Shown piece by piece: positions 1,904 through 47,953 of a stretch of DNA of 64,000 nt. Source of the DNA: an uncultured Acidobacteriota bacterium (lineage in GTDB: Bacteria > Acidobacteriota > Thermoanaerobaculia > Multivoradales > UBA5704); assembly GCA_963718645.1 (NCBI GenBank), contig OY970373.1:2855900-2919899 (forward strand), written 5' to 3'. Both the position numbers and the translations under genes were made by a program. Position 1 is the stretch's first letter. Every line of letters starts with the position of its first letter. Under the pieces are notes generated by a model. That model saw nothing but the letters and a program-made list of their open reading frames with translations, was not told the DNA's origin and did no database searches.

Positions 1904-1999
1904 GGGGGACAATGGACCCAAGCGACGAGGAGTTTTGTTTGAGGAAATGGCGCGCTAAACCGGCTCGGGTCGACGGTCTTCTATAATGGAAATGACATT

Positions 2000-2677
2000 A
2001 TGGACACGGTTAAGCTTATCAAAACGTACATAGAACAGATCAAGCGGCCCAATATTCTCTTGGGAATAGACGGAGGCCAGGGATCCGGAAAAACAAGCTT
2101 TATTGGTAAACTGAGTACAGCATTGGATCGCTACAATGTTGTAAACATTGAGACTGATGACTATTTACTTGATCGAGATCAACGCGAGGACTTGCCAGTC
2201 TCGTTCTTTGAATCCTTCGAGAACCTATCAGATCTATATGATTTCGAGAGGTTCTCCGAAACGGTCAGGACTTTGGCTGTATCGGTGCAAACTGAGATTA
2301 TCTTGGGAGGGCTCTACGATAGGAAGACCGGAAGACGCGATCGTTCAGAAAAAATAAAACTGAGTGATAAGAACATTGTTATTGTGGGTGGGCCATATTT
2401 GCTGTCGGCGCTATTGCCGAGATTCGATCTGACGATTTTCCTTGATGTCGATGAGGCGGTCCGCTTGGACAACACGCTGCGGCGCACACTAGATAACAAT
2501 AATAGATCGATAGAATCGCAGAACGCGGTCTTCGGCAAATTCGAGAAGTTCTTCTATCCTTACTATTCCGACAAACTGGCTGAGTTCGACGTAATCATTG
2601 ATAACAATGATTGGTCGAATAATTATATAACAAGAGATCGTGTCGGAGTACATAGCCCCGCGGTCGGCAACCCTTAA
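2000..2677 (+). CDS. P-loop NTPase, uridine kinase/phosphoribulokinase-like nucleoside/nucleotide kinase fold
   Basis: Walker A GIDGGQGSGKTSF lies near the N-terminus; the protein is 225 aa and sits in the low-GC block. Confidence 0.6.
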   Translation: MDTVKLIKTYIEQIKRPNILLGIDGGQGSGKTSFIGKLSTALDRYNVVNIETDDYLLDRDQREDLPVSFFESFENLSDLYDFERFSETVRTLAVSVQTEIILGGLYDRKTGRRDRSEKIKLSDKNIVIVGGPYLLSALLPRFDLTIFLDVDEAVRLDNTLRRTLDNNNRSIESQNAVFGKFEKFFYPYYSDKLAEFDVIIDNNDWSNNYITRDRVGVHSPAVGNP

Positions 2678-2717
2678 GGCCACGTTTAAAATAACTACAA
2701 TTTACAATATTTAATCT

Positions 2718-3401
2718 ATGACACTTAAGGACAAGGCTGTGGTAATCACCGGAAGTAGCAAGGGGCTTGGAAAAGCTCTTGCTGCAGCGTTTATCCATGA
2801 GGGCTCAAGGGTAGTTATCAGTGCACGATCGATAAGTGAATTGGATAATGCGGCCCGCGAAACTGGAGCAACTCCTTATCTTGCGGATGTGACTAAAGAA
2901 AGGGAGGTCGTGAAGCTCGCCCAATTCAGCAAGAGGCAATTTGGGACGATTGACGTCTGGATCAACAATGCGGGTACCACCATTTCCCATTCATCAATTG
3001 AAGAAATTGACGATAGGGCGGCTCATCAGGTCATGGAGGTGAACTTCTTCGGCACGTTCTATGGTTCGCGAGCGGCGATCTCAATAATGAAAGGGCAAAA
3101 GTATGGCGTCATTGTGAATATTGTCTCGATGAGCGCCTTTGTTGGCCGTCCTCAGTCATTGGTGTACTCCGCGAGCAAATGGGCGGCCCGTGGATTCACG
3201 AAAGGTCTTCGTATGGCTCAAGAGCCAAACCATATCTCTGTGATTGCAGTGCATCCAGGAGGCATCAAGACTACGATGTTTGGCGATCAACTTCCAGTGG
3301 GTTACGAAGACTGGATGGAGCCGTCTTTTGTTGCGAAAAGCATAGTACGAAACTTGAGGCGCAGCTCACCAAAAGAAGAGTTGGTAGTGCGCAAAAAGTA
3401 A
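2718..3401 (+). CDS. short-chain dehydrogenase/reductase (SDR)
   Basis: Has the VITGSSKGLGKA (TGxxxGxG) motif, NNAG, and the YSASK catalytic YxxxK. Confidence 0.85.
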   Translation: MTLKDKAVVITGSSKGLGKALAAAFIHEGSRVVISARSISELDNAARETGATPYLADVTKEREVVKLAQFSKRQFGTIDVWINNAGTTISHSSIEEIDDRAAHQVMEVNFFGTFYGSRAAISIMKGQKYGVIVNIVSMSAFVGRPQSLVYSASKWAARGFTKGLRMAQEPNHISVIAVHPGGIKTTMFGDQLPVGYEDWMEPSFVAKSIVRNLRRSSPKEELVVRKK

Positions 3402-3533
3402 TTGCGACCTACTCACCTCGATCAGGTAAAGCTAGATCACCTTAAGGAGGTTCTAGTTGCCCAGTCGCTGGAGCGATTCTCGGAATATGCAGAAGGACAC
3501 GACTTTTGAGATATGGCATAGGAGAGTCAGTTC

Positions 3534-4103
3534 ATGACAAATTTCTTGGATAAGCTAACTGCGATTAGTACCATGTTGACGGCTATTGCTGCGGCGGCGG
3601 CGGCGTTCATCGCTTTCTTCCAGACACGGGCAGCATCAAAAATCGCAAAATCAACTGCTGATCAAGCGATGGCACTCGCCAAGTTTAACGCTGAATTGCA
3701 ATCCGTCCAGCATTTTGACACTCAATGGCAGTCGGACCGTATGATCAAAGTACGCCGCGGCGCAGCAGCGGCGCTGCTGCGCGAAGAGCCGAGCGTAGAT
3801 GTCGATGAGGTCCTTGATTTCTTCGAAGAGATCGCACGCCTCGTAAAGCGTGGTATCTTGCCGATAGAGACGGCCTGGGATGCCTATTATTGGCCGATTG
3901 CGAATTATTGGGCGAAGTCCGCGGCCTACGCGCAGGAGGCTCGCGACGATGAGGGTGCGTCGTGGACAAACTTGCCCGAGGTATTAACGCGGCTACAACA
4001 AGTAGAATCAAAAGAAAGCGACCGGCCGATCAATGCAGTTTCTCCGCGCGAGGCTCAGACCAGGGTATTCTTAGAAGGTGAAACCAAGCTGGAATTGCTA
4101 TGA
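3534..4103 (+). CDS. membrane-anchored hypothetical protein (N-terminal TM helix)
   Basis: A GGAGAG RBS lies 8 nt upstream. The N-terminal hydrophobic helix is LTAISTMLTAIAAAAAAFIAFF and the rest is soluble. It is the last gene of the low-GC block. Confidence 0.55.
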   Translation: MTNFLDKLTAISTMLTAIAAAAAAFIAFFQTRAASKIAKSTADQAMALAKFNAELQSVQHFDTQWQSDRMIKVRRGAAAALLREEPSVDVDEVLDFFEEIARLVKRGILPIETAWDAYYWPIANYWAKSAAYAQEARDDEGASWTNLPEVLTRLQQVESKESDRPINAVSPREAQTRVFLEGETKLELL

Positions 4104-4310
4104 CCTGACTGCGGAGTTCAACCAAGCGAAGATGAGGTCTCGGGCGTGAGCCGTACGATACTAATGTCCCATAGGCAGGGCAGCCTTGTGACTGCACTGC
4201 AAATACCGTGGTTCCCATGCACCACGGGGATCTGCCCCGGGGCAGGGTGCGAGCCATCATCCGTCAGAGGGGGAGGACCGAGGAGGAGTTCAAGCCGTTG
4301 CTATAATGGC

Positions 4311-5909
4311 TCACGCCGCCTTGCCCTCCTCGGTCGCTTCTCGTCCCCCGGGACTACCCTCCATCAATTGCCTAATGTTTCCAAGCTTCTCTCTTGACTC
4401 CGCCTCAGCCAAAAAGGTTCGAACTTCGTGGAGAAAGGTCCGCAGCTCGATACTGGTCGAAGTTGTTGACCATCGTCTGAACGGTTTTGCCGCGTCAATC
4501 CTGAGTTCCCGGTCTTGGAGCCGAGGGTTCGAACCGGCGATTTGAAGGATGAGCCGTTTTTCATCCGGAGTGCCGGTTCGGAACCGCGAAGCCGCTTCTT
4601 CATTGAACGCAACGAGGAGACGGGCGGGTTCGAACCGGTCCTCATCTTGGCCGAGCTTCGCAATCTCCTGAGCCATCCGGAGACGGTCTCGGGTGATCTC
4701 CTGGCGCTCCTGTAGGAACTCGGCGTCGTCCAAGATGTCCCGGATGCGGAGCTTCTTCAGGTTCGCGAGCTGGCGGTCGAGCGCCGCGGCCTGGTTTTCG
4801 AGCGCCCGCCGTTGCTTTCCGAGGATCTCCTCCTCGTCGGCGGTGAGCCGGCTAAGGCGTTCCATCTCGAAGCCGTGGAACTTTTCGGGGATCGAGATCT
4901 CTTCGAGGAACTGTGCCGCCTGTCCGTCCAGCCGCTCAGCGGAGATGGAGCGTTGGGCGCAACGGTAGTCGAGGCGACGCCAGGAGCAGTGGTAGTAGGT
5001 GTAGTGGGAGCCGAAGCGGTTTGTCTTGTGCTCAGCCGTGACGGCGAAGCCGCATTCCCCGCAGCGGATCATGCCGGTATAGGGGAAGGCATAGGTCTTC
5101 CGCCGCGGTCGCCCCGGGCGGCCGAGAAGCTCCTGCACCCGCTCGAATTCGGAGAGGGTGACCATGGCCTCGTGCTTCCCCGGGTAGATCTTTCCTTCCC
5201 ACTCGATCACCCCCGCATAGAAGGGGCTCTTGAAGATCTTGTAGATGGCGCTCTTCGTGAAGGGAGCGCCGCCGATCCTCTTATGGGTCCGCGTGACGAG
5301 TCCCCATTCCTTTCCCGCCATCTCCCAGATGCGACGGGGAGTCGCCTCCTCGGAGAGGAGGAGCCGCCACATCTTCTGGATCACGTGGAACCGCTCGGGG
5401 TCGGGGATGATCTGCCCACTCTCGCGGTCGTTCAGATACCCCGCCGGCGCGAAGTTCGGGAGCCAGCCCTTTTCCACCTTGGCCCGCATGCCGCGGCGGA
5501 CGTTCTCAGAGAGGGCGTCCACGTAGTACTTGGAGTACCCGAAGATAATTGAGAGCATGAACTTGCCCTGCGAGTTGTTCTCGAAGGTGTGGTTCGCGAA
5601 GCGGAGGTCTTTGAGCGTGCCTTTGTCGAGAAGGTAGATGATCCGGCCGCCGTCGATCGAGTTCCTCGCGAGCCGGTCCGGGTGCCAGGCGATGATTCCT
5701 TCCGCCTTGCCCTTCTCCACCTCGTGGAGCATCTCCTCGAAGACGGGACGCCCCGGAGCCTTCGCGCTCTGCGCTTCCTCGAAGGTCCGGACGATCGTGA
5801 GGCCCGAGCCTTCGGCAAGGCGCTCCATCTCAACTCGCTGCGAATCGATGGAGAGGATCTGCCGATCTTCCGATTCGCTTGACTTGCGGCAGTAGAGAAA
5901 ATATTTCAT
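4311..5909 (-). CDS. large serine recombinase (resolvase/invertase N-domain + recombinase domain + zinc ribbon)
   Basis: The N-terminus YCRKSSESEDRQILSIDSQ carries the catalytic Ser motif and the protein is 532 aa. A Cys-rich segment RCGECGF....CS is typical of the zinc-ribbon region of large serine recombinases. Confidence 0.85.
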   Translation of the reverse strand: MKYFLYCRKSSESEDRQILSIDSQRVEMERLAEGSGLTIVRTFEEAQSAKAPGRPVFEEMLHEVEKGKAEGIIAWHPDRLARNSIDGGRIIYLLDKGTLKDLRFANHTFENNSQGKFMLSIIFGYSKYYVDALSENVRRGMRAKVEKGWLPNFAPAGYLNDRESGQIIPDPERFHVIQKMWRLLLSEEATPRRIWEMAGKEWGLVTRTHKRIGGAPFTKSAIYKIFKSPFYAGVIEWEGKIYPGKHEAMVTLSEFERVQELLGRPGRPRRKTYAFPYTGMIRCGECGFAVTAEHKTNRFGSHYTYYHCSWRRLDYRCAQRSISAERLDGQAAQFLEEISIPEKFHGFEMERLSRLTADEEEILGKQRRALENQAAALDRQLANLKKLRIRDILDDAEFLQERQEITRDRLRMAQEIAKLGQDEDRFEPARLLVAFNEEAASRFRTGTPDEKRLILQIAGSNPRLQDRELRIDAAKPFRRWSTTSTSIELRTFLHEVRTFLAEAESREKLGNIRQLMEGSPGGREATEEGKAA

Positions 5910-6097
5910 GGATGCTGTGTGTCTTCTCCCCTCGAAGGCGACGGGTCCTGATTTCTCGCAGGCTGACGCGAGAGCATCAGATAGAGCGCGTCAAGGCGGG
6001 CGATATGTTCGCGCGCCTCGTCCACGGTGATCTTTTCTTCAAACTCTTCGCGCCAGATCTCCTGGAACCGGCGGATGTCGTCCTCCGTGATGCGCAC
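5906..6097 (-). CDS. small helical protein translationally coupled to the serine recombinase (possible directionality/accessory factor)
   Basis: Its stop overlaps the recombinase ATG (ATGA overlap at 5906-5909). It is 63 aa and acidic/helical. Confidence 0.4.
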   Translation of the reverse strand: MRITEDDIRRFQEIWREEFEEKITVDEAREHIARLDALYLMLSRQPARNQDPSPSRGEDTQHP

Positions 6098-6373
6098 GAG
6101 GACGACGATACTCCGCGATCAGCGGGCGAGGTAGGCGGGAAATGCAGGCGCCCTTTGAGGTGAGAAGTGCAGTTGGGTGAGTGATTCGACCTTGTCTATC
6201 GATGGTACGAAGAAGAGACGGATTCGTCAAAAGGTGATTGGATGGTGTCGATGATCTTCGCCTTTCCTCTCTCGGAAACTTCTTGATTTTCCAATCTCGT
6301 TCTTACCTTGGAAACCCAAAGCAGCGCGCTCGTAAAGGGTGTGTAGATTTCGTCCTTGGTTTGTTTTCTTCAG

Positions 6374-6389
6374 CGGGTATCCTGATACC
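6374..6389. promoter_or_regulatory. perfect inverted repeat GGGTATC-CT-GATACCC in the divergent intergenic region (candidate operator)
   Basis: The palindrome is read directly in the ~400 bp lower-GC intergenic region between the recombinase operon (-) and the RuvC/primase genes (+). Confidence 0.35.
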
Positions 6390-6508
6390 CATCATGAAGA
6401 ACCTCATAACAATCAGGATCAAGGCCGAGCTTCCCGACACGCGTGCCGGCCCGACGACGACTCTTTCTATATCATTCACACTCCGTCGCCCAATTTACCC
6501 TCTTCACT

Positions 6509-7000
6509 ATGGAAAACACCCCAACCCGCATCTTCGCTATTGACCCCACGACCAAAGGCTTCGGCTATGCCGTCTTCGAGCTGCCGTTCCGCCTCGTCGA
6601 ATGGGGGATCGCCCGTGTCGCCGGCGAGAAACATGCGGGCACTGTCCTCCGGTTCGAGCAGCTTCTCGCTCGCTTCCGTCCGGACGCGGTGGTCTTGGAG
6701 GATGCCGAGGCCCCCGGTTCGCGCAGGCAACCCCGCGTCCGGCGCCTGATCGAGGCCCTCACGAGACTAGCCCGCGAGCGCGGCATCGCCGTGTACACGA
6801 TCGCAAGGAGCGCCGTCCTAAAGTGCTTCTCTTCCACCGACAACGTCGCAACGAAGCAGTCCATAGCGAGGAATCTCGCCGGACGTTTCCCGGAGCTTGC
6901 GGAGCAGTTGCCGCCGCCCCGCAAGCTTTGGCAAACCGAGCATGAACGCATGTCGGTCTTCGACGCCCTGGCCCTCGCCGTGACCCACGCGAACTCGTAA
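6509..7000 (+). CDS. RuvC-family Holliday-junction resolvase (crossover junction endodeoxyribonuclease-like)
   Basis: RIFAIDPTTKGFGYAVFE resembles the RuvC N-terminus IxGIDPGxxxxGYGV. VVLEDAE supplies the second acidic residue. The C-terminal FDALALAVTHA matches the RuvC DAxDALAxAxxH motif. Start chosen at the internal ATG (MENTPTRIF); the ORF-track start at 6443 is a GTG. Confidence 0.7.
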   Translation: MENTPTRIFAIDPTTKGFGYAVFELPFRLVEWGIARVAGEKHAGTVLRFEQLLARFRPDAVVLEDAEAPGSRRQPRVRRLIEALTRLARERGIAVYTIARSAVLKCFSSTDNVATKQSIARNLAGRFPELAEQLPPPRKLWQTEHERMSVFDALALAVTHANS

Positions 7001-7116
7001 TCCGGCCCGACATGTTCTCTTCGCGCAAGGCGGCCCCCGAGGCCGCCTTTTGCGTTCCTGCCCCGGCCGCTACCCTGATTCGCAGAACTCCGACAATTTT
7101 AAGAAAGGAGGATGAG

Positions 7117-8052
7117 ATGCCCGAGGGCTTCATCTCGTTTGCGGAGGTAAAGCGTGCAGTCACGATGGAAGCGGTTCTCACCCGCTACGGACTCCTGGAG
7201 GGATTGACCCGCAAGGGCCAGAACCTCGCGGGTCCCTGTCCCTTCTGCAAAGGCAAGTCACAGCGCCAGTTCCAGGCGAATCTCTCGAAGAACGCCTGGT
7301 ACTGCTTCGGATGCAAGGAGGGCGGGAACGTCCTCGACTTCGTCGCGAAGCGCGAGAAGGCGAGCGTGCGTGCCGCGGCCCTGAAGCTCGATTCCTGGTT
7401 CGAGCTCGGACTCGGGGCAGAGTCTCCATGTCCCGAGCAACCCCGGACTCCAACCCCGGCGCCACCGGCCGCGACGGAGGTAGCGCCCACAGAGAACCCG
7501 CCCCTGGCCTTCACCTTGAAGACCCTGGACCCCCGCCATGCGAGTCTCGAGGCCCTGGGACTCGGGGAGGCGACCATCGACCGCTTCGGCGCGGGGTACT
7601 GCGCGAAGGGACTCTTGAAGGGGCGGATGGCGATCCCGATCCACAATCGCTACGGGGAACTCCTCGCCTACGCGGGTCTCGCCCTCGGCGAGGAAGCTCC
7701 CCGCTACCTCTTCCCGCCGAAGTTCCATCCGGCGCTCGAAGTCTTCAACCTGCATCGCCTGATCGAGGTCCCTGAGGAGAGGGGGCCGCTCTACCTTGCC
7801 CCCGATGTCCTCGGAGTCCTCCGGCTCGCCGAGGCCGGGTACGTCTCGGTCCTCGGCCTCTTCGACGGCTCGCTCTCCGAGGCGCAGGAGGAGGCCATCC
7901 GGGGCGCCCTCTCGCTCTACGAGGGATTCCAACTCGTAGGCGAGGGCTTCGCCGACCGCACGATTGCCCGGCTCGCGCGGTATGCGGGTGTCTCCTGGGT
8001 CGCAGAGCTGTCCCAGAACCCCCTTACCGAAGCAGGGAGGGAGTATCAATGA
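7117..8052 (+). CDS. CHC2 zinc-finger DNA primase-like protein
   Basis: AGGAGG RBS precedes the ATG at 7117. CPFCKGKSQRQFQAN...WYCFGCKEGGNVLDFV matches the zf-CHC2 motif of DnaG/phage primases. Confidence 0.7.
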   Translation: MPEGFISFAEVKRAVTMEAVLTRYGLLEGLTRKGQNLAGPCPFCKGKSQRQFQANLSKNAWYCFGCKEGGNVLDFVAKREKASVRAAALKLDSWFELGLGAESPCPEQPRTPTPAPPAATEVAPTENPPLAFTLKTLDPRHASLEALGLGEATIDRFGAGYCAKGLLKGRMAIPIHNRYGELLAYAGLALGEEAPRYLFPPKFHPALEVFNLHRLIEVPEERGPLYLAPDVLGVLRLAEAGYVSVLGLFDGSLSEAQEEAIRGALSLYEGFQLVGEGFADRTIARLARYAGVSWVAELSQNPLTEAGREYQ

Positions 8053-8330
8053 GAACGGCGGAGCCTTTTGCCTTGGGAGGGGTCGTCGCGACTCCCGCCG
8101 CCCTCCAGGCCTTCGCCGACGCCGAGGAGAACTACCTGCCCTATCTCATGCGCCACGCGGGAGGTGATTGGGGCGACGTTTGCCCGGAAGATGCTTCTGC
8201 GAACGACGAAGCGCGCGACGCCGGCGAGCGCATCATCTCCGCATACAACCTTCGCTGCGGCACGAGGGTGTGGATCATTACCGAAGCCGACCGCTCCTCC
8301 ACCTGCATCCTCCTCCCCGAAGAGTATTGA
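8049..8330 (+). CDS. small conserved hypothetical protein (93 aa), translationally coupled to the primase-like gene
   Basis: ATGA overlap with the upstream stop. Notable motifs are GDWGDV...WIITEADRSSTCILLPEEY. A hairpin terminator follows. Confidence 0.5.
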   Translation: MRTAEPFALGGVVATPAALQAFADAEENYLPYLMRHAGGDWGDVCPEDASANDEARDAGERIISAYNLRCGTRVWIITEADRSSTCILLPEEY

Positions 8331-8337
8331 TTCCCCC

Positions 8338-8375
8338 CGCCCCGCGGCACGGCCGTCGGGGCCTTTTCTTTGGCC
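8338..8375 (+). terminator. intrinsic terminator candidate
   Basis: GCCCCG-cggcacggccgt-CGGGGC hairpin followed by cttttctttgg. Confidence 0.5.
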
Positions 8376-8601
8376 GCAGACTTAGGCCCCTACCATCCGC
8401 AGCTCGAAGTCCTGGAGTCTCAGCACGAGGAGGGCGTACGCGAAGGCAAGGGAGGTCGCCGAGGAGTATTCCGAGGCCTTGACCGGGAAGGCCTCTTCCC
8501 GCTCTGCCCGGTCCTTATCTTGGTAGCTCACGGAGGCTCTGAAGTGTCGCACCTTGCGCACGGGAGTGTCTTTCTTTGGGCTGATACTTGGCTAAATGCT
8601 A

Positions 8602-9237
8602 TCACGACCGCCGGGCACCCGGACGATCCGGGCTTTCGCTCACGAGGTCGAGGAGAGCCGACTTCGCCCGCAACTCCTCGGTCCACCGCTCGGGCTCCGT
8701 CCCTATGAGATCGCGGTACGTTTCGACAATGAGCGCCCGGAGATTCATGACCGCCTCTTGCCGGGTGCCTCCCCTCGCGGAGAGCTTCACCTCGATGAGG
8801 TGCGCCGCAAACCCCGGCCCGTCGAATTCGATGAGGAGATCCATGGGACGCCTGAACCGAAAGGTGTTCGGCAGGAGGGTTTGGACTCGAAGAGCGACGC
8901 CGCTTTGATTGTGCCAGAGCGCCTCGTAGGCGCTCTGGATATCCGCCGTGACCTTCTGGGACAAGAGTATTGCCTTTCCGATCAGGTCCATGGCCTTGTC
9001 GGCGGCCGCCTTCTCGCGCGGCTTGCGGCGCAGGGTGCGACCCTGCCGCGCCTTGCTTTCCCGTGCGATTTCCCGCACCGCCTCGATCGCCCGCGGGGGG
9101 AAGAAGCGTCGCCGGCCCCGTCTTTCAAAAGGGATGCGGTCGCCGTGCTTCTTCAGGAAGACGAGGAGCCTATCGTAGGAAACGCCCGCTTGGCTCGCCA
9201 CCTCGGTCATCGAATATCGTTCTTTTCTCTCGCTCAT
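8602..9237 (-). CDS. HTH-domain DNA-binding protein (N-terminal HTH, unknown C-terminal domain)
   Basis: YSMTEVASQAGVSYDRLLVFLKKHG is an HTH-like N-terminus; 211 aa. Confidence 0.5.
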   Translation of the reverse strand: MSERKERYSMTEVASQAGVSYDRLLVFLKKHGDRIPFERRGRRRFFPPRAIEAVREIARESKARQGRTLRRKPREKAAADKAMDLIGKAILLSQKVTADIQSAYEALWHNQSGVALRVQTLLPNTFRFRRPMDLLIEFDGPGFAAHLIEVKLSARGGTRQEAVMNLRALIVETYRDLIGTEPERWTEELRAKSALLDLVSESPDRPGARRS

Positions 9238-9246
9238 GATCCGGGG

Positions 9247-9672
9247 TTACCCCACTGACGAAATGATGGAGACTCCCAGATCGTGCGGATAGAGGCACAC
9301 GCTCTTCGTCTCCCTTTCCCACTCCCTTTGAGGAATGAAGATCCGCCCGCCGTGCCGTCGCACGAGGCATGCCAAGGCGCGGTTCAGGCGCTCCGGGTTT
9401 ACCAGATGATCTGCCTCGACGTGTCCCCAAAGTATGAGGTAGGACGCTTCGGAATTCGGATCGTCATCCCAATCCCGGAAGTACGCTCGCACCAGTTCCG
9501 GGCCGCCCTGCCGCGCGATGCGGAAGGGCGAGTTGCGGATGAGGTCGAGGTCGAGACCGAGTTCGCCGGTGACGATGATGGACACGCGATCGATACCTTT
9601 CACCTGCGGATTGAATGCTCTGACGTGGAGAACCTTGGCGCTATTTTCATGCTTGGTTTTCAGGAGGTTCAT
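9247..9672 (-). CDS. hypothetical protein (141 aa) overlapping the upstream XRE regulator gene
   Basis: It overlaps the XRE gene end by 26 nt, an operon-like arrangement. No family recognised. Confidence 0.4.
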   Translation of the reverse strand: MNLLKTKHENSAKVLHVRAFNPQVKGIDRVSIIVTGELGLDLDLIRNSPFRIARQGGPELVRAYFRDWDDDPNSEASYLILWGHVEADHLVNPERLNRALACLVRRHGGRIFIPQREWERETKSVCLYPHDLGVSIISSVG

Positions 9673-10117
9673 GATGGCCTTGATCCCGATTCATCTTCCC
9701 GTCCGCATTGCCGCCGAGCTCCGACCTTCGCCCCAAGACAACCTCCTCGAAAACCCTCCGGTGAAGGTCCAGGACCTGGATCAAGAGCCGAGAGAATGCC
9801 TCTTCAGTTTCAGCCCGCAGCAGGGAACCACCCTCTTTAGGGGGGAGCATCCACGCGCCGGGACGATCGGACGAATTGAGTGCGGAGGCCCGCTCATCGA
9901 CCAAGCTCAGCGTGTAGAAGAAGTCGCAAACGCCGATGTCCAGGGCGCCGAGCACCTTCTCAAGCGAGTCCAGTCGGGGGAGCTCCTTTCCGTTCTCATA
10001 TTTCGAGAGCTGGCTTTTCCCGATCCTTGCGTCGCGGGCAATGCAAGCCTGGCTCTTGCCCCGAAGCTGTCGAATGAGCGTGAGAGTGTTCCCGACGTTA
10101 TGGAACAAAGATGCCAC
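9647..10117 (-). CDS. XRE-family HTH transcriptional regulator
   Basis: LRQLRGKSQACIARDARIGKSQLSKYENGKELPRLDSLEKVLGAL is a Cro/C1-type HTH. Confidence 0.7.
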   Translation of the reverse strand: MASLFHNVGNTLTLIRQLRGKSQACIARDARIGKSQLSKYENGKELPRLDSLEKVLGALDIGVCDFFYTLSLVDERASALNSSDRPGAWMLPPKEGGSLLRAETEEAFSRLLIQVLDLHRRVFEEVVLGRRSELGGNADGKMNRDQGHHEPPENQA

Positions 10118-10414
10118 CCATCACTCTGGGGTTGGGGCGGTAGGCCGCCACAAATTCCGGGAGCTGGCGGGCGGCACGCTCGAACGAGTCGCCCGAGCGG
10201 TGCGAGAAAAAAAGAGCGGGGCGGCGGGTGTCTCTTGCCGCCACCCCGGGAAAGGAACCACAGCCATCGGCTGGGCCGGAGGACTCTTGCATGCGTCTCG
10301 GGAAGGCCTTCCGGATGATCTCCCTCCGCTCTCGGATCAATCGATGCAATCTCTTCTTCTCCCTGTAGGCAGGTCGGTCGCCGTTTGGCACGCGGGCATC
10401 GTCCCCGAACGGCT

Positions 10415-10636
10415 TCAGAGAGGCGTGCAGGTCCCGAGGGCGCTCGGGCTGCGGAAGGCAAGAGCGCCGTCAAACTCCCAAGCCTGCCGCGTCACCGCCA
10501 CGCACTCCGGGCAGCCGCTCAGGAGATGGCGCACGACCAACTGACTCTCGGCGCGGGAGACCTCGCCGCGTAGGAAGCGCAGGAGAAGCTCCGTCTGGGG
10601 GTGTTCGCAAGGTCGCGTCATGGTCCTTGGAGGCAT
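10415..10636 (-). CDS. small zf-HC2 (anti-sigma-factor-type zinc finger) protein without a TM segment
   Basis: CEHPQTELLLRFLRGEVSRAESQLVVRHLLSGCPEC matches the HxxxCxxC zf-HC2 pattern. It is divergent from HTH-TPR regulator 1. The start may instead be the MTRPCEH Met at 10621. Confidence 0.45.
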   Translation of the reverse strand: MPPRTMTRPCEHPQTELLLRFLRGEVSRAESQLVVRHLLSGCPECVAVTRQAWEFDGALAFRSPSALGTCTPL

Positions 10637-10838
10637 CCGGCTCGGTTCGGCGTCTCCAACGGAGAGGGTAGGGTCATCGCCGGGCGGCAGTTACCCGAAA
10701 GCGGTAAGCGGTCCTCCAAGGAGACCGGAGTATGGAATTTTCTTCTCAGTTCCGCCAACAAGCGGTTGGGAATTCACGTGCGCTTGTCACGCTAAGGCAT
10801 ACTTGAGGTACTTCTATAGTTGAGCCCGGAGAAGGTGC

Positions 10839-12308
10839 ATGCCGCAACCCAACCCCACGCCACTTAGCCTGAGCCTGGCCTTCCTGCGCCTCATCCAGGG
10901 CTGGAGCCAGGCGAAACTGGCTAAGGCCACCGGGATCTCGGTGAAGATGCTCTCGCGGTATGAGACGGGGAGGACCACTCTCTCCCGAGAGCTGCTGGAA
11001 AGGATCGTTGTCGCGATGGGCTTCGGGCCTGAGGCGATCGATTGGAGCCTCTTCTATCTCCGACAGGTCCGCCAGGAGATGGATGCCGCCGCCTCGCCCG
11101 CGGGGCCAACGGCAGCGGAGCGCCGGCTCATCGAACGGGCCACGCTCGCGAAGGCCTTGTCCGGGGCGGATGAAACGCGCTCGGAGCTCACCCGCTCCCT
11201 CCGGAACCTCCGCGCGGAGCAAGACCGCCGGGAGGCACAGCGCCTCTGGGAGTACCTGAAGGGCCGCCGGGCCAGAGACCGGCGGGTGCTTGTCGAGGGC
11301 GGGCGGGAGTACAAGAGTTGGGCTCTCTGCGAGCGGCTCTGCTTTGCCAGCTTGACGGCTGCGGCGGACGACTCCGTCGAAGCAGTGGGATTGGCGGAGT
11401 TAGCCGTGAGGGTTGCCGAGCTGGTGGGGAGGGAGGAGCCCGAGCACATGGGCCTCCAGGGCTATGCCTTCGCTTTTCTCGGGAACGCTCGCCGAGTCCA
11501 GGGAAATCACCCAAGCGCCGAGGAGGCATTCGCCCAATTTGAGCAGTTGTGGAGTGGGGGAAGTCCCGCAGGCCACTGTCTCCTCGATGGAGCGCGCCCC
11601 CTCGACCTCAAGGCGTCGCTACGGAGGCATCAGGGAAGCTTCGACGAAGCCTTGGATCTGCACGCCCGGGCACTCGCAATGGCGAACCCGGCTGACCACG
11701 GTTCGTTCCTACTCAACAAGGCAAAAACTCTGGAGGAAATGGCCCGCTACGAAGAAGCGATCGAGACGCTGAAACAAGCTGAACCCTTATTAGGTGGCGG
11801 ACCGCGCGAGTCACGGCATTGGTTCGCGCTCCGGTGCAACCTTACGGTCAATCTTTGCCACCTGGGGCGCTTTGATGAGGCGGAAGCATTCTTGCCGGAA
11901 GTGCGGCAACTGGTAGACCGGTCTGGCAATCGACTCGACAAATTGCGGGTGCGTTGGCTGGAGGGACGAGTCGCAGCCGGCATGGGACGGTGGGACGAGG
12001 CTCTCGCCGCTCTGTCCCAGGTGCGGGCGGAGTTTACCTCGCGCGGGATCGCTTTCGACACCGCCCTGGTTAACCTGGAGCTTGCGGTAGTCCACCTGGA
12101 GTTGGGGCGCATTGGAGAGGTAAAGACGCTCGCGCGGCAGGTGCTGCCGATCTTCAAGGCGCAAGGAGGGCACCGCGAGGCCTTTGCGGCGCTCTTGCTT
12201 TTTCGCGAGGCCGCCGAAAGCGAGGCGGTCACGGTGGAGTTTACCCAGCGTCTTATCGAATACCTCCACCGCGCCCGCTACGACCCGAACCTCCGCTTCG
12301 AAGCCTGA
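10839..12308 (+). CDS. HTH(XRE)-TPR transcriptional regulator, paralog 1 (RRNPP/AimR-like architecture)
   Basis: GGAGAAGG RBS. The N-terminus LRLIQGWSQAKLAKATGISVKMLSRYETGRTTLSRELLERIVVAMG is an XRE HTH. The C-terminal ~400 aa is helical-repeat and very similar to paralog 2, e.g. RRVLVEGGREYKSWALCERLCFASL...NARRVQGNHPSAE. Confidence 0.75.
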   Translation: MPQPNPTPLSLSLAFLRLIQGWSQAKLAKATGISVKMLSRYETGRTTLSRELLERIVVAMGFGPEAIDWSLFYLRQVRQEMDAAASPAGPTAAERRLIERATLAKALSGADETRSELTRSLRNLRAEQDRREAQRLWEYLKGRRARDRRVLVEGGREYKSWALCERLCFASLTAAADDSVEAVGLAELAVRVAELVGREEPEHMGLQGYAFAFLGNARRVQGNHPSAEEAFAQFEQLWSGGSPAGHCLLDGARPLDLKASLRRHQGSFDEALDLHARALAMANPADHGSFLLNKAKTLEEMARYEEAIETLKQAEPLLGGGPRESRHWFALRCNLTVNLCHLGRFDEAEAFLPEVRQLVDRSGNRLDKLRVRWLEGRVAAGMGRWDEALAALSQVRAEFTSRGIAFDTALVNLELAVVHLELGRIGEVKTLARQVLPIFKAQGGHREAFAALLLFREAAESEAVTVEFTQRLIEYLHRARYDPNLRFEA

Positions 12309-12434
12309 GCATCAGAGCCGCCCGTCAATAGAGCCTCGCTTGCCGCTACGCCTCACGATCCCACCAGGACCAGGCTCGAAACGTCGCGGAGATCATCGCC
12401 TGTCCCTTGGCTTGCAGAGAGGCCAGCCCTGGCT

Positions 12435-12740
12435 TCAGTGCCCGCCCGTACAGCGGCCGTTCGGATCGATGCTGCAACCAGTGTCCGCTTGGGCAGGAGC
12501 GTTTGAACCAGCGCCGGCTTGGCAAGAGGCGCCGTGCGGATCGATCGAACAGCCGGTCTTAAGGAAAACACGGCCGAGCGTCTCCCAGAGGCGGACCAGG
12601 ACATCCGGCTGCATCGCAACAATGCGCGGTTCTCGGCCAAGCTCGATAGCGCGCGGCTGCGCCGCCGCCCAGGGCGACCCGATGGCCATCACTCCAAGAA
12701 CTAGGACGAGGATCACCCGATGAGAGCGGGAAGAGAACAT
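12435..12740 (-). CDS. small secreted cysteine-repeat peptide (102 aa precursor with signal peptide)
   Basis: The internal ATG at 12740 has a GGAG 7 nt upstream. MFSSRSHRVILVLVLGVMAIGSPWAAAQP looks like a Sec signal peptide. The mature part carries two GCSIDP(H/N)G..C repeats, encoded by repeated cGGATCGAT at the nucleotide level. It is divergent from regulator 2 and convergent with regulator 1. Confidence 0.5.
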   Translation of the reverse strand: MFSSRSHRVILVLVLGVMAIGSPWAAAQPRAIELGREPRIVAMQPDVLVRLWETLGRVFLKTGCSIDPHGASCQAGAGSNAPAQADTGCSIDPNGRCTGGH

Positions 12741-12864
12741 AATGAGTCTCCTTTTCACGGGGGCCACACGGCGCTGCCACCGTGGCCGCCGGCGCCTCTC
12801 CAACCAGTATGGTGCCTTGCGGGGAAGATTAGTCTACCCAAGAGGTCTTCAGGGAGGACCGCTG

Positions 12865-14337
12865 ATGACGAGGCAACGGGAGCTAACAGCCAGCGGCGTA
12901 GTCGTAGGCCTTCTCCGCTTGCTCCGTGGCTGGAACCAAACGGAGTTGGCGAATGCCTCCGGAATCGACAAGTCCCTGATCTCCCGCTATGAGCGAGGAA
13001 CCAAGGTGCCGAGCCGTCGAACCTTGGAACGCCTCGCCGCCGCCGCAGGCATCCCCTTTTCTTGGGTAGAGCGGCAACTCCCGGAGATCCGTGCAGCTCT
13101 CGCCGCGATCAAGGAGGGAGCACCCGCCGTGGCCCAAAGCTCCGCCGGCACGACCGATGTGGAACAAGCGGTTCTCGCACAACTCGGTTTCCAACTGGAA
13201 GGGCAGTCTCCTCCCACACCGAAGCAGGCTCGAAGAGAGGCTCAGGGGCTTTGGGACTACTTTAAAAACCGATCAGCTCGGGACCAGCGAGTGCTTGTCG
13301 AGGGCGCACGGGAATATCAGAGTTGGGCCTTTTGCGAGCGTCTCTGCTTCGCCAGTTTAGCGACTGCGGCGAACGACCCCCTGGAAGCGGTGGAGTTGGC
13401 GGAACTGGCCGTCAGGGTTGCCGAGCTGGTGGGGGGAGAGGTCCCCGAGCGCCAACGTATTCAGGGCTATGCCTGCGCTTTTCTCGGGAACGCCCGCCGG
13501 GTTCAGGGGAATCACCCAAGCGCCGAGGCAGCCTTTGGCCTTTCCGATCGGCTCTGGATCGCGAGCGCTTCCGGGAGCGCGGGTCCTCTCGATGAAGCAC
13601 GTCCGCTCGACCTCAAGGCCTCTCTCCGGCGGCACCAGGACCGATGCGCAGAAGCCCTTGAGCTGCACGACCGGGCGCTGAGATTGGCGAACCCGGCTGA
13701 CCACGGCTCGTTCCTGATCAACAAGGCAAAGACCCTGGAAGAAATGGCCCGGTTCGCCGAGGCTGTCGAAGCGCTTACCCATGCCGCGCCCCTGGTCAAA
13801 GCAGGGCGCGAACCGCGGCTCCTGTTCGCACTTCACTGCAACCTGACGGTCAATTTATGCCATTTGGACCGGTATGCCGAGGCCGAAGCCTTGTTGCCGG
13901 AGGTGCAGCGGCTCGTCGGAGGACTCGGAACGCGACTGGACACGGTACGGGTTCGCTGGCTTGAAGGCAAGGTGGCGGCCGGCTTGGGCAGACGCGAGGA
14001 AGGCATCGCCGCTTTGAAGGAGGTGCAGCAGGAATTCAAGGACCGCGGAATCGCCTTCGACACTGCCCTGGTCTCGCTAGAGCTTGCGGTGGTCCACCTT
14101 GAAGAGGGGCACACCTCAGAAGTCAAGACACTTGCGCAGCAGATGACGATCATCTTCAAGGCACAGGGAGTCCATCGGGAGGTTCTGGCGGCGCTCCGGC
14201 TTTTCTGGGACGCCGCTAAACGGGAAACGGCGACCGTGGACTTGGCGCGGCAGCTCGTGAGGTTTCTTCATCGCGCTCGGCATGACCCAGACCTGAAGTT
14301 TGAGCCTGAGAGCCAGCCGCTCCAAGGCAGGCCATAG
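12865..14337 (+). CDS. HTH(XRE)-TPR transcriptional regulator, paralog 2
   Basis: GGGAGG RBS precedes the ATG at 12865; the ORF-track start at 12742 is an upstream extension. The HTH is LLRLLRGWNQTELANASGIDKSLISRYERGTKVPSRRTLERLAAAAG. The C-terminal region is collinear and highly similar to paralog 1; 490 aa. Confidence 0.75.
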   Translation: MTRQRELTASGVVVGLLRLLRGWNQTELANASGIDKSLISRYERGTKVPSRRTLERLAAAAGIPFSWVERQLPEIRAALAAIKEGAPAVAQSSAGTTDVEQAVLAQLGFQLEGQSPPTPKQARREAQGLWDYFKNRSARDQRVLVEGAREYQSWAFCERLCFASLATAANDPLEAVELAELAVRVAELVGGEVPERQRIQGYACAFLGNARRVQGNHPSAEAAFGLSDRLWIASASGSAGPLDEARPLDLKASLRRHQDRCAEALELHDRALRLANPADHGSFLINKAKTLEEMARFAEAVEALTHAAPLVKAGREPRLLFALHCNLTVNLCHLDRYAEAEALLPEVQRLVGGLGTRLDTVRVRWLEGKVAAGLGRREEGIAALKEVQQEFKDRGIAFDTALVSLELAVVHLEEGHTSEVKTLAQQMTIIFKAQGVHREVLAALRLFWDAAKRETATVDLARQLVRFLHRARHDPDLKFEPESQPLQGRP

Positions 14338-14361
14338 GGCATCGCGGAGACCGGCTTCCCG

Positions 14362-14814
14362 CTACTCCACGGCGAGGATCTCGGGAACGATCCGGCCGTC
14401 TGCGACGGTGAGGACGGCGAGGGTGAGGGGATAGGAGAAGCGCCGCGGCCCCACGGCTCCAGGATTGAGGAAGAGACAGGCACCTCGCCACTCAAGCTCC
14501 GGCCGGTGGCTGTGGCCGAAGACCACGAGGCGAGCCTGCTTCGCCCAGAGAGGATCGACGTCCTCCCGGCGGTGGATCATCCGAAAAGGCAGGCCGTCCA
14601 GGTCCCCGGAGGCCATAAGGGGCAGTTCCTCGGCCTCTGGGCCGGAGTCCGTGTTCCCGCGCACGACATCGACCGGCGCGATCTCGCGGAGCTTCTTCAA
14701 GACCTCTGTGCCTCCCACATCTCCCGCGTGGAGAATCCGGTCCGAGCCCGCAAGGAGGGTGAGGACCCGGGGCCGCAGGAGTCCGTGGGTGTCCGAGAGC
14801 ACTCCGACGCGCAT
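14362..14814 (-). CDS. metallophosphoesterase (YfcE/MJ0936-like phosphodiesterase)
   Basis: GVLSDTHG, HAGD, GNTD and FGHSH motifs are present. Confidence 0.75.
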   Translation of the reverse strand: MRVGVLSDTHGLLRPRVLTLLAGSDRILHAGDVGGTEVLKKLREIAPVDVVRGNTDSGPEAEELPLMASGDLDGLPFRMIHRREDVDPLWAKQARLVVFGHSHRPELEWRGACLFLNPGAVGPRRFSYPLTLAVLTVADGRIVPEILAVE

Positions 14815-14860
14815 GGGAGGAACGCTATCCCATGGGGAAGCTCCGGCTCAATGCTCCGGC

Positions 14861-15313
14861 TTACACGCCTTCCCGTGTAATTGCTACAGCCGCCATGAAC
14901 TCTTCGAGCGTTTGCCGCACCCTGTCGTGCCCGTCTCCCACCCGGCCCGCCTCCCATGCCCGCACGGTCGAAGGGTCGAGACCCAGGTGAAGGGCAAGGG
15001 CCTTTTGGGAGAGCCCCATGACCTTGCGCGCCGCCCGGAGGCGCTCGGACAAGGACCGCGGCGCGGGGTTGGGGTCGTGGCCCAGGAAGCGGATGACCCG
15101 GGAGTAGGGCGCCTCGCCGACCTTGGCCCGGCCGTTTTCCCAATTCTTCACGGTGGCCAGGGAGACCCCGAGCGCCCGCGCCGTTTCGCGCAGGGTGAGC
15201 CCGAGTTCCGAGCGCCGCAGCCGCAGGTGCTCCCCCAAAGGCACCTCTGGCACGGGGGGTGCAGAGTCCAGGGCCGGTTTAGACGTAGAGAGGATAAGAT
15301 CGCAAAATGGCAA
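14861..15313 (-). CDS. tandem double-HTH (XRE-type) DNA-binding protein
   Basis: Two HTH_XRE-like segments: LRETARALGVSLATVKNWENGR and LSQKALALHLGLDPSTVRAWEAGR. Confidence 0.6.
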   Translation of the reverse strand: MPFCDLILSTSKPALDSAPPVPEVPLGEHLRLRRSELGLTLRETARALGVSLATVKNWENGRAKVGEAPYSRVIRFLGHDPNPAPRSLSERLRAARKVMGLSQKALALHLGLDPSTVRAWEAGRVGDGHDRVRQTLEEFMAAVAITREGV

Positions 15314-15482: not shown

Positions 15483-16781
15483 ATGCGACACCCACGCCGC
15501 ATCGTCTTGCTGTGCCTGATGACCGCCCTGGGCGGGTCAAGCCTCGCGTCAGCCTCGGGCTTCGGGCTGTTCCAGCACGGCGCCCGCGCCATCGGGCAGG
15601 CCGGTGCCTTCACGGCCCGCGCCGTCGACCCCTCGACCGTCACCTACGACCCGGCGGGGATCACCCAGCTAGCCGGCCTGCAGGCCGAGGCCGGCCTCGA
15701 CATGAACAACCCCACGGTCGACTACCAGAGCTCGACCGGCAGCTTCGCGGCCCGGCACATTATCCAGTTCCCGCCGGCGCTCTACGTGACCTGGAAGCCG
15801 AAGAGCGGGCCACTGGCCTTCGGGCTCGGCTACGACTCCCCCTTCAACGACAGCCTGTTCTGGGATCCCGTGGACTTCCCCGGCCGCTTCGTCAACCGCC
15901 GCACCGAGCTCCGCCTTTATGAGATCCACCCGATCGTGGCCTACGACCTGGGCGAGGGGTGGAGCGTCGGCGCCGGGTTCCGCTACGCCTTCGGCAACCT
16001 CGACCGCGACGTCAACGGCATCGAGACGGTCGACGTCGTCACCACGCCCGGCCCGGCGACGCCGGTGAGCGTCGAGCTCCGGCGCAACGCCACGGCGGAC
16101 ATCAACGGCACGGCTTGGGACGCCTCCGTTCACTACGGCGCGCCGTCCTGGGGTTTCGGTGCCGTGTTCAAGAGCGCCGAGAGCCTGAAGGGGAACGGCA
16201 CCGTGTCGTACGTGACCCGTGACACACCTACCGTCCCGGGCTTCGACATGGCATTCCAGACGCAGTTCGCCAACGGCCGCACCCGGGAGTCCTTCGAGCT
16301 CCCCCGCGAGGTGCGGGGGGGCATCTGGTACGCCCCCTACCCCGAGCTGCGGATCGAATTCGACGCCAGCTTCCAGAGCTGGTCGAGCCTCCAGACGACG
16401 GACATCACCTACTCGCCCAACCCGTTCAACCCGAGCTTCCCGACCGAGAGCACGCCGCGGGACTGGAAGGACACCACCGGCCTGCGGCTAGGCGTCGAGG
16501 GGAACGTCACCGACCACTTCCTGCTCTACGGCGGCGTCGCCCGCGAGCAGTCGCCGGTACCCGACCGCACCGTCGAGCCCGGCTTCCCCTATGGCGATTT
16601 CATGGTCTACGCCGCGGGCTTCGGCTACGAATTCGCCACGATCTCGTTCGACATGGCGTACTCGTACCACAAGTTCGACAGCCACAACGCTCCGCATCAG
16701 GAGCTGCAGAACCCGGCAGTCACCGGGTCCTACAGCGGCCGCGACAGCGTCTTCGGCCTGACGGCGCGCTGGCGGTTCTAG
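15483..16781 (+). CDS. FadL/TodX/OMPP1-family outer-membrane transport protein
   Basis: Signal peptide, GFGLFQHGARAIGQAGAFTA family signature, and a C-terminal ...RWRF aromatic terminus. Confidence 0.8.
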   Translation: MRHPRRIVLLCLMTALGGSSLASASGFGLFQHGARAIGQAGAFTARAVDPSTVTYDPAGITQLAGLQAEAGLDMNNPTVDYQSSTGSFAARHIIQFPPALYVTWKPKSGPLAFGLGYDSPFNDSLFWDPVDFPGRFVNRRTELRLYEIHPIVAYDLGEGWSVGAGFRYAFGNLDRDVNGIETVDVVTTPGPATPVSVELRRNATADINGTAWDASVHYGAPSWGFGAVFKSAESLKGNGTVSYVTRDTPTVPGFDMAFQTQFANGRTRESFELPREVRGGIWYAPYPELRIEFDASFQSWSSLQTTDITYSPNPFNPSFPTESTPRDWKDTTGLRLGVEGNVTDHFLLYGGVAREQSPVPDRTVEPGFPYGDFMVYAAGFGYEFATISFDMAYSYHKFDSHNAPHQELQNPAVTGSYSGRDSVFGLTARWRF

Positions 16782-47833: not shown

Positions 47834-47908
47834 CTGGTTGGGGCGGGAGGATTCGAACCTCCGGTAGCCAGATTCAAAGTCTGGTGCCTTACCGCTTGGC
47901 GACGCCCC
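47834..47908 (-). tRNA. tRNA-Gln (anticodon UUG)
   Basis: Reverse complement: TGGGGCGTCGCCAAGCGGTAAGGCACCAGACTTTGAATCTGGCTACCGGAGGTTCGAATCCTCCCGCCCCAACCA. Cloverleaf with GGTTCGAATCC T-arm and anticodon loop CUUUGAA; close to E. coli tRNA-Gln. Confidence 0.85.
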
Positions 47909-47953
47909 AGCGTGGGGTTCACCCTTTCGGGCGACCGGCACGGGACCGCAAGC

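Follow-up and report, generated by a model that had tools for sequence, protein, structure and literature searches.

A cysteine-loop peptide precursor gene reciprocally linked to HTH-TPR regulator genes in Acidobacteriota: a candidate peptide signalling cassette

Between two genes for regulators with a helix-turn-helix (HTH) and a tetratricopeptide repeat (TPR) domain, here called reg1 and reg2, the genome of an uncultured Acidobacteriota bacterium of the class Thermoanaerobaculia carries a short open reading frame whose predicted product combines a signal-like N terminus with two cysteine-bracketed repeats. It lies at 12435-12740 of the stretch that we analysed, a window of 64,000 nucleotides (contig OY970373.1 of assembly GCA_963718645.1, positions 2,855,900 to 2,919,899; features in Table 1), and raises the question of whether this is a gene at all and, if so, whether its product is a secreted ligand of the flanking regulators, as the first-pass annotation of this DNA supposed, or an effector whose expression they control. 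The first part has a plain answer: the region codes for a protein, the protein belongs to a family with a defined architecture, and its gene is tightly and reciprocally linked to the regulator genes. For the second part our favoured reading, to which we give a probability of about one half, is a peptide signal with cytoplasmic TPR receptors, similar in kind to the RRNPP systems, in a diderm phylum and here on an integrative element.

Retranslation of the minus strand gave a product of 101 residues identical to the translation first quoted, with the two Cys repeats and four cysteines claimed for it, and the GGAG said to stand 7 nucleotides upstream of the ATG at 12740 was read there. The product runs MFSSRSHRVILVLVLGVMAIGSPWAAA-QP...KTGCSIDPHGASC...DTGCSIDPNGRCTGGH; its four cysteines fall in CSIDPHGASC (from 12551) and CSIDPNGRC (from 12476), both of which fit G-C-S-I-D-P-x-G-x(1-2)-C, and the G+C content of its three codon positions (0.68/0.57/0.69) is coding-like, with the same pattern as in the neighbouring genes. 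The reading frame is conserved in homologous loci. Six homologues at 95-34% identity came out of a search through 5.8 billion proteins; they keep the frame, the start codon and the loop motif and share M1, L48, W52 and every G-C-x-[IL]-D-P-x-G...C position; one of them, from the related locus L005 (such loci are designated L001 to L030), had been shortened by the gene caller, and the full L005 reading frame carries the same signal peptide. Nei-Gojobori counts for the window gene against related loci gave ratios of nonsynonymous to synonymous differences per site (pN/pS) below 1 throughout, of 0.27-0.46 against the three closest loci and 0.70-0.76 against the three most distant ones, the loop-bearing third of the gene being the most constrained (pN/pS 0.13-0.6, with synonymous sites nearly saturated at pS 0.4-0.8). 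These values show purifying selection on the small gene at the protein level.

The alternative raised at the outset was that the region is not a gene and that its GGATCGAT palindromes are part of a structured RNA, of a terminator for reg1 or of a DNA-level repeat element. The features behind it exist: two 15-nucleotide direct repeats with GGATCGAT, both containing ATCGAT, lie at 12456-12470 and 12531-12545, 75 nucleotides (25 codons) apart, and the window contains 10 GGATCGAT sites where 3.5 would be expected, a modest excess. The GGATCGATC palindrome is thus present twice, as had been noted, but what had been called unusual in it is a by-product of codons. The repeat is the reverse complement of ATC GAT CCG xAC GGC, which encodes I-D-P-x-G, and among 77 homologous loop units only 23 retain ATCGAT, since GAT/GAC, ATC/ATT/ATA and CTC alternate freely. 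Because related loci keep the amino-acid motif while the nucleotides change, selection acts on the peptide, and the palindrome was rejected as a functional DNA site. Folding gave the RNA alternatives no support either: the energies of 12430-12560 on both strands equalled those of dinucleotide shuffles (z 0.02 and 0.09), the convergent spacer (12300-12440 on the plus strand, 12309-12440 on the minus strand) gave z-scores of +1.1 and +1.3, and with the 5' leader folded as well all z-scores lay between 0 and +1.3. Rfam at a permissive threshold yielded only one chance miRNA match, elsewhere, and no terminator-like site was found after reg1. Together with the conserved frame and the loss of the palindrome in homologues, these results refute the structured-RNA and terminator alternative and leave a non-gene reading with practically no chance; the region 12435-12740 is a real protein-coding gene.

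Its product belongs to a large protein family, marked by a distinctive repeat, that is not covered by Pfam or NCBIfam. Of 1.84 billion cluster representatives, 1153 matched a profile built from seven sequences at E<=1e-3, and 378 did so at the stricter cut-off of E<=1e-10; a profile search of the 90% collection gave 726 members. All family matches are annotated as hypothetical, the window protein had no match in Pfam, NCBIfam, PHROGs or PADLOC, and a precomputed Pfam match exists for only one of the listed homologues. Every taxonomically named member is a protein from a metagenome-assembled genome of Thermoanaerobaculia, and the seven loci found in GTDB species genomes belong to Thermoanaerobaculia/Thermoanaerobaculaceae or Holophagales, all of them Acidobacteriota. 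The genome and metagenome scans used a narrow alignment (A1) and therefore under-sample the family, and protein-database counts underestimate it because automatic gene calls often fail on the cassette. For example, the peptide gene is shortened in L005 (9905-10285) and uncalled in L030 (11541-11984), and in L028 (about 8106-9491) an apparently intact reg1-like reading frame is replaced by two short calls on the opposite strand.

Family members are about 83 to 194 residues long, mostly 95-170, and share a layout of a signal-like N terminus, a variable stretch, an amphipathic helix of the form (L)W..L...W and then loop units with the consensus [DEK]-x-G-C-x-[ILV]-D-P-x-G-x-C (a single-loop example is DTGCSIDPNGRC), joined by linkers rich in Pro, Ala, Thr and Ser and followed by a tail of 2 or 4 residues. 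The n-h-c signal-peptide layout attributed to the window protein is also seen by hydrophobicity and charge heuristics, both in that protein, with R5, H7 and R8 in the n-region, an h-region from residue 9 with a mean Kyte-Doolittle value of 3.4 and AAA/Q at 25-27/28, and in the family, where the h-region is strongly hydrophobic and starts near residue 10 in 147 of 150 members, and the n-region carries a net positive charge in 148; A-x-A followed by Q or G at the predicted cleavage site is conserved in the homologue alignment. The pro-region of the window protein takes up roughly 35 residues and ends in the amphipathic Trp helix. An AlphaFold2 (AF2) model made with a 40-sequence alignment contains only a signal helix (4-20) and this second helix (45-62), the rest being low-confidence coil (mean predicted local distance difference test score, pLDDT, 62), so that the small protein, having no globular fold in the model, looks like a peptide precursor and not like a folded domain. 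L48 of the helix is invariant in a seven-sequence alignment, and W52 is invariant there and kept in at least 90% of the 40-sequence alignment; the invariant columns among the 40 sequences are G63, C64, D67, P68, G70 and C73 in loop 1 and G88, C89, D92, P93, G95 and C97 in loop 2.

Among the top 152 members each precursor has two to five loops, most often three, and from the first to the second Cys a unit measures nine residues in 372 of 423 cases (88%). The core C, D-P, G and C are nearly invariant across the family, and three to four positions vary per loop. At these variable positions identity is 0.48 within a protein and 0.24 between proteins; the position that follows the first Cys has values of 0.48 and 0.10, respectively, whereas the linkers of the same proteins sit at background (0.14 within, 0.11 between). 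Because the loop positions are homogenised while the linkers are not, the loops of one precursor are kept alike by selection, and this likeness fits a multi-copy precursor of one specific product. We also observed a distant subgroup (L018 6716-7526, L025 4649-5542) with the same signal peptide, Trp helix and KNGCSIDPNG start, in which two tandem paralogues have a single, sometimes open loop followed by a Pro/Lys-rich tail, with no HTH-TPR gene nearby.

The regulators are the constant partners of this gene. The statement that it lies between two HTH-TPR genes holds: reg1 and reg2, paralogues with 58% identity, both match TPR_12 (3e-19 and 5.5e-10) and HTH_3 (1e-10 and 5e-13), and are separated from the small gene by 126 and 124 nucleotides, respectively. 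The start of reg2 was set at 12865 and not at the mechanical 12742, on the grounds that the ribosome-binding site and ATG there are conserved in all related loci. At least 635 homologues of the regulators were found, and all named ones are from Thermoanaerobaculia or Acidobacteria. An intact triad of reg2-like gene, small gene and reg1-like gene is present in L001, L003, L005, L006/7/8, L009 and L012 and also in the more distant L013-L015 and L020, whose regulators are 35-47% identical to those of the window; L016, L017, L026 and L027 keep the convergent HTH-TPR gene, and their divergent gene is an HTH-only relative of reg2. Among the canonical loci, which have at least two loops, those with enough downstream flank number 16, and a convergent HTH-TPR gene follows immediately downstream in all of them, at 3-195 nucleotides from the stop codon of the small gene. 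The linkage holds in the reciprocal direction as well: two regulators picked blind among reg1 homologues of about 48% identity on 2-Mb contigs (P0216 and P0265) each have a convergent loop gene immediately downstream. One of these loop genes had been missed by the gene finder, and its locus also holds a decayed remnant of a divergent regulator. Synteny with HTH-TPR genes persists across Thermoanaerobaculia and Holophagales, even where regulator identity has fallen to 35-40%, and no other gene is conserved with the pair across loci, including any for a maturase, a transporter or an immunity protein.

Some further features of these loci are worth recording. Several cassettes may occur on one contig, as in L020 (411-785 and 2166-2624), in the pair P0290/P0299 and in P0306 together with L029, and the alternating peptide genes and regulators of L020 suggest tandem duplication into paralogous systems. 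The convergent spacers measure only 3-195 nucleotides, with 3 in L003, 11 in L009 and 19 in L005 (12309-12434 in the window), and, as no terminator-like site turned up, the transcripts of the peptide gene and the convergent reg1-type gene may overlap. A stretch of 20 nucleotides ahead of reg1 (10707-10726), read on the other strand, is 85% complementary to the ribosome-binding site and leader of reg2 at 12844-12863 (GGTCT.C..GGAGGACCGCT); it may be what is left of another regulator start, or else regulatory sequence that the two have in common.

The AF2 model of reg1 (pLDDT 90.5) consists of an XRE-type HTH (8-59), a 50-residue helix (92-141) and a TPR-like superhelix (145-479), and in a Foldseek search it matched designed TPRs and LGN/Pins at E of about 1e-5 and Rap-pheromone complexes at template modelling (TM) scores of 0.62-0.66. 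The best bacterial matches include the phage Rap-Phr receptors 8rst and 8rte, and the fold is similar to that of peptide-bound Rap, NprR, AimR and PlcR. Modelled in this way, reg1 has the fold of a peptide-binding TPR superhelix and is compatible with a receptor of the RRNPP type, although the match is too unspecific to claim homology. The fold matches also include TPR domains that bind Trp-containing or helical peptides, namely kinesin light chain with W-acidic cargo and LGN, and these bring in another possibility, that the regulators sense the unexported precursor in the cytoplasm, e.g. by docking of the Trp helix 45-62 in the TPR groove. On this view the cassette would be a gauge of secretion capacity or of the state of the envelope, or else a partner switch, and not a measure of cell density. 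This would require no double crossing of the outer membrane, and helix 45-62 is the best-conserved part of the protein outside the loops, W52 being near-invariant and L48 invariant among the closest homologues. But it leaves unexplained why the loops are the most constrained part, why they are multiplied two to five times and why they are alike within a precursor, and a Sec substrate exported co-translationally or rapidly would be a poor cytoplasmic ligand; we regard it as quite improbable.

Evidence that the cassette is itself regulated comes from the control region shared by the divergent small gene and reg2. Between loci, this 124-nucleotide spacer varies less than the coding sequence on either side of it, and the upstream non-coding sequence is conserved among loci whose proteins share only 35-50% identity (L001-L030). 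Distant loci show, in this order, an inverted repeat with an AT-rich centre, the GGCACCATACT box, a GGAGAGGCGCC block, a GC hairpin and AAGGAG-N7-ATG, and versions of the inverted repeat found elsewhere are GGGAGA...TCTCCC, GTAGA...TCTAC, CGGAA...TTCCG, GGGGGA...TCCCCC and GGTG-GAATTCAA-CACC. The two arms of the repeat vary in a symmetrical manner from locus to locus, and the recognition helix in the HTH of the divergent regulator varies as well, which suggests that the repeat is an operator. Helix and repeat change together broadly, and no rule was derivable, so that a recognition code relating the two was abandoned. The short GC hairpin, CGGYC-N5-GRCCG, shows compensatory (GGTC/GACC) and wobble G-U variants between loci in a per-sequence search; the hairpin in the window's own leader is imperfect, 16 leaders aligned with MAFFT yielded no consensus structure in RNAalifold, and the leader hairpin remains tentative. 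The control region may combine an operator with a leader RNA element. A sigma-70 consensus scan found no promoter, and a sigma-54 reading of the GGCAC box, made by eye, was rejected, the -12 GC element not being conserved.

The proposal that the secreted Cys peptide is the natural candidate ligand of the flanking regulators is strengthened by protein-level selection, by the family-wide signal layout and by the reciprocal synteny. Sec export of the precursor is plausible, and we infer the steps that would follow it. The precursor would be exported by Sec and cleaved after AAA27; each Cys pair (C-x7-8-C) would close a disulfide loop around the D-P-x-G turn in the oxidising periplasm, and cutting of the linkers would release several copies of a small cyclic peptide. 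This peptide would accumulate outside the cells, be taken up again and bind reg1, as well as reg2 in loci that have it, in the groove on the concave face of the TPR superhelix. Binding would alter the action of the HTH domain on the conserved inverted repeat and the promoter between the peptide gene and reg2, the outcome being an autoregulated, density-dependent switch, and since the cassette sits on an integrative element with a serine recombinase and a primase, the switch may govern the behaviour of that element. By analogy with arbitrium, RapI-PhrI and PrgX, a bolder form of this reading is conceivable, although the odds are against it: that these are the first family of pheromones with cytoplasmic TPR receptors in a diderm phylum, Acidobacteriota-wide cassettes with tandem-encoded, disulfide-cyclised nonapeptide loops and 'pherotypes' set by three to four loop positions, often on integrative or conjugative elements whose density-dependent behaviour they determine.

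Several observations weigh against a signalling role. The signal peptide of the window protein is a supported but heuristic-based prediction. A cyclic peptide of about 1-1.3 kDa is not obviously permeable through porins and would face the outer membrane as a barrier, and no Opp-like importer is linked to the cassette. Precursors of 95-170 residues exceed the typical length of RRNPP propeptides, and the pheromones of Firmicutes diverge fast, whereas the loop core here (C, D-P, G, C) is nearly invariant. On the receptor side, sequence searches of the PDB with the regulators returned only generic HTH and TPR matches and no RRNPP receptor, and the fold-match scores of Rap and NprR are equalled or exceeded by those of the eukaryotic LGN, Pins and APC subunits, so that the TPR match is generic. 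Finally, the adjacency of the genes is equally expected if the regulators simply control the small gene.

This last point leads to the main rival of the signalling reading, in which the product is a secreted effector and the regulators are merely its local transcription factors, sensing some other cue. Candidates for such an effector are a bacteriocin-like or competitor-directed peptide, a protein with tandem protease-inhibitor-like loops, and a periplasmic peptide that binds metals or other cations. Export features and disulfide-capable loops suit an extracytoplasmic role, the invariant Asp and the frequent His, Asn or Asp in the loop could ligate cations, the operator-like repeat shows only that the gene is regulated, and the generic TPR similarity is no obstacle. 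Bowman-Birk and SFTI-type inhibitors have a nine-residue, Pro-containing disulfide loop with the consensus C-T-P1-S-x-P-P-x-C; the span of these reactive loops equals that found here in 88% of units, but the sequence C-x-[ILV]-D-P-x-G-x-C does not agree with theirs, and the Bowman-Birk consensus is absent. Multi-core precursors of ribosomally synthesized and post-translationally modified peptides (RiPPs), e.g. cyanobactins, likewise carry a repeated core peptide on one precursor. Here, on the other hand, a Sec signal peptide takes the place of the cytoplasmic leader, and instead of the maturase and transporter that accompany a RiPP precursor the neighbours are regulators, which are conserved, and mobile-element genes. 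Against an effector stand, further, the lack of any conserved immunity, exporter, maturase or target gene, the regulators being the only conserved partners, and the absence of matches in PADLOC, PHROGs, Pfam and NCBIfam; nor would an effector need one or two dedicated TPR regulators of 490 residues per locus, or several paralogous cassettes per genome. We therefore consider an effector function rather unlikely.

Returning to the signalling reading, how closely the cassette resembles known peptide-receptor systems can be judged from the generic RRNPP signature, which comprises a small (10-100 residues) exported propeptide, a receptor of 250-500 residues, TPRs and direct adjacency (PMC10075063). 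The window agrees with four of the five points, export being judged by heuristic only, and misses the size limit by one residue (101). The regulators, with 489 and 490 residues, fall within the receptor range, their TPRs and XRE HTH are seen by Pfam and in the AF2 superhelix 145-479, and the adjacency is present in all canonical loci with enough flank and is reciprocal. As in the RRNPP(A) systems of Bacillota (Rap-Phr, NprR-NprX, PlcR-PapR, PrgX, Rgg-SHP and AimR-AimP), a small, predicted Sec-exported precursor stands beside a cytoplasmic receptor of about 490 residues with an N-terminal XRE HTH and a C-terminal TPR superhelix, mobile elements frequently carry the cassette, and several paralogous cassettes may be found in one genome. 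Unlike in those systems, the host is a diderm and all named relatives belong to Acidobacteriota (Thermoanaerobaculia, Holophagales), the receptors have no detectable sequence homology, Cys-bracketed C-x-[ILV]-D-P-x-G-x-C loops replace short, linear, unmodified peptides, the precursor is longer (95-170 residues), the receptor gene is usually convergent and accompanied by a second, divergent HTH(-TPR) gene, and a linked importer is missing. Because sequence homology is absent, the structural match is unspecific and the host phylum differs, membership of the RRNPPA superfamily cannot be claimed; this lowers the case that the cassette is an RRNPP system, not the case that it works like one.

Two known systems resemble the cassette in particular respects. 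Tandem pheromone copies occur within the propeptides of the Rap-Phr systems of phages phi3T and phi105 (PMC11343458), and these resemble the present precursors in having several putative mature units per exported precursor, separated by linkers, but theirs are linear 5-7-mers released by extracellular proteases of Bacillus, whereas the units here are Cys-Cys loops of 9-10 residues, up to five per precursor. For Rgg2/Rgg3-SHP of Streptococcus pyogenes (PMC3509411, PMC3150281), two paralogous regulators with an HTH and a repeat domain likewise serve one peptide locus; there is no homology, and the short hydrophobic peptides (SHPs) are exported by PptAB. The likeness suggests, by analogy, an activator/repressor pair acting on one promoter, and opposing roles for reg1 and reg2 would be pure conjecture.

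Table 1. Features of the peptide cassette and of the element that carries it (window coordinates)
Feature	Position	Strand	Basis or remark
Gene for 101-residue precursor, stop codon included	12435..12740	-	Predicted signal peptide, pro-region and two Cys loops; translation, homologues, conserved frame
Shine-Dalgarno GGAG	12748..12751	-	7 nt before ATG at 12740; AAGGAG-N7-ATG kept across loci
Predicted Sec-type signal peptide, residues 1-27	12660..12740	-	n: SRSHR; h: VILVLVLGVMAIG; c: SPWAAA; predicted cleavage before Q28
Amphipathic helix PDVLVRLWETLGRVFLKT, residues 45-62	12555..12608	-	Directly precedes loop 1; AF2 model and conservation
Loop unit 1, G63-C64-S-I-D-P-H-G-A-S-C73	12522..12554	-	Translation; invariant columns
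Loop unit 2, G88-C89-S-I-D-P-N-G-R-C97, then 4-residue tail TGGH	12450..12479	-	Translation; invariant columns
reg1, 489-residue XRE-HTH, long helix and TPR superhelix	10839..12308	+	Convergent with peptide gene; partner in every canonical locus with enough flank
reg2, 490-residue paralogue	12865..14337	+	Divergent from peptide gene; HTH-only protein or remnant in some distant loci
Shared divergent control region of peptide gene and reg2	12741..12864		Conserved across loci; putative function
Imperfect inverted repeat GGGTAGA-CTAA-TCTTCCC	12821-12839		Arms change symmetrically between loci
Box GGCACCATACT, -10-like CATACT	12806-12816		Recurs across loci
Leader block TTGGAGAGGCGCC...GGCC-N5-GGC	about 12770-12803		Conserved leader
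Mobile-element backbone carrying the cassette	4311..15313		Pfam, PHROGs, G+C content at third codon positions (GC3)
Large serine recombinase	4311-5909	-	Pfam/PHROGs
Primase-like protein	7012-8052	+	Pfam/PHROGs
XRE repressors	9647-10117 and 14861-15313	-	Pfam/PHROGs
Metallophos_2 phosphoesterase	14362-14814	-	Pfam/PHROGs

The cassette of the window sits on a mobile-element backbone, a block that also encodes three small regulators of the XRE/MerR type and whose GC3 of 0.69-0.82 sets it apart from the host genes to its right, which begin with FadL at 15483 and have values of 0.90-0.95. In L001 and L003 the cassette lies on this same element. Locus L028 encodes a serine recombinase together with a TraG/TrwB coupling protein, and L006 encodes ParB, SSB and a restriction enzyme, so that in several loci the cassette is found on mobile elements, as many RRNPP systems are; L029 and L030 have no obvious mobile-element genes. 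A phage origin was considered and rejected, as IMG/VR viral contigs contained no relatives and PHROGs gave only matches of the regulator and primase type. A search for attachment-site repeats at the island ends returned only a 10-nucleotide match at chance level, and the left end of the island probably lies outside the window. To the left of the recombinase, positions 1-4300 form a third compositional block (GC3 0.49-0.52) with genes for a 614-residue protein with a weak TPR match (59-1903), a P-loop kinase or zeta-toxin-like protein (2000-2677) and a short-chain dehydrogenase (2718-3401), in which PADLOC found no match. A Logan contig of ERR11718634, 9698 bp long, encodes the identical peptide and agrees with the window in gene order between the HTH/Metallophos end and a point shortly after the primase-like gene; the contig may result from a break in the assembly, or it may point to the element in a free or excised state. 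The window has a single tRNA gene, tRNA-Gln (TTG), at 47835-47909 of the minus strand, and it has no relation to those island ends that were examined.

Genetically encoded peptides that act as signals through cytoplasmic TPR receptors count as a hallmark of Bacillota, their phages and their plasmids, and the literature consulted describes them from Bacillota alone. Acidobacteriota, which are abundant in soil and sediment and mostly uncultured, are bacteria about whose communication almost nothing is known. Our literature search found nothing that links RRNPP to Acidobacteriota and nothing on this loop motif or family, and what would be new here is that a peptide with a cytoplasmic TPR receptor occurs in a diderm phylum and that its units are Cys loops arranged in tandem. 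The gene, its family and its linkage to the regulators are firmly established, and synthetic peptides would allow a direct test of the proposed function, the loops being short enough for chemical synthesis, the regulators being modelled with high confidence and the promoter region having an operator-like repeat. Even if the product were an effector, the cassette would still stand for a large protein family with a distinctive repeat for which Pfam and NCBIfam have no model. With about a thousand cluster representatives and dedicated regulators, the family is a concrete, testable candidate for signalling, and if this role is true, peptide-TPR quorum sensing would extend to diderm bacteria, raising the question of how a cyclic peptide passes the outer membrane and suggesting that the mobile elements of these soil bacteria use peptide signals for their decisions.

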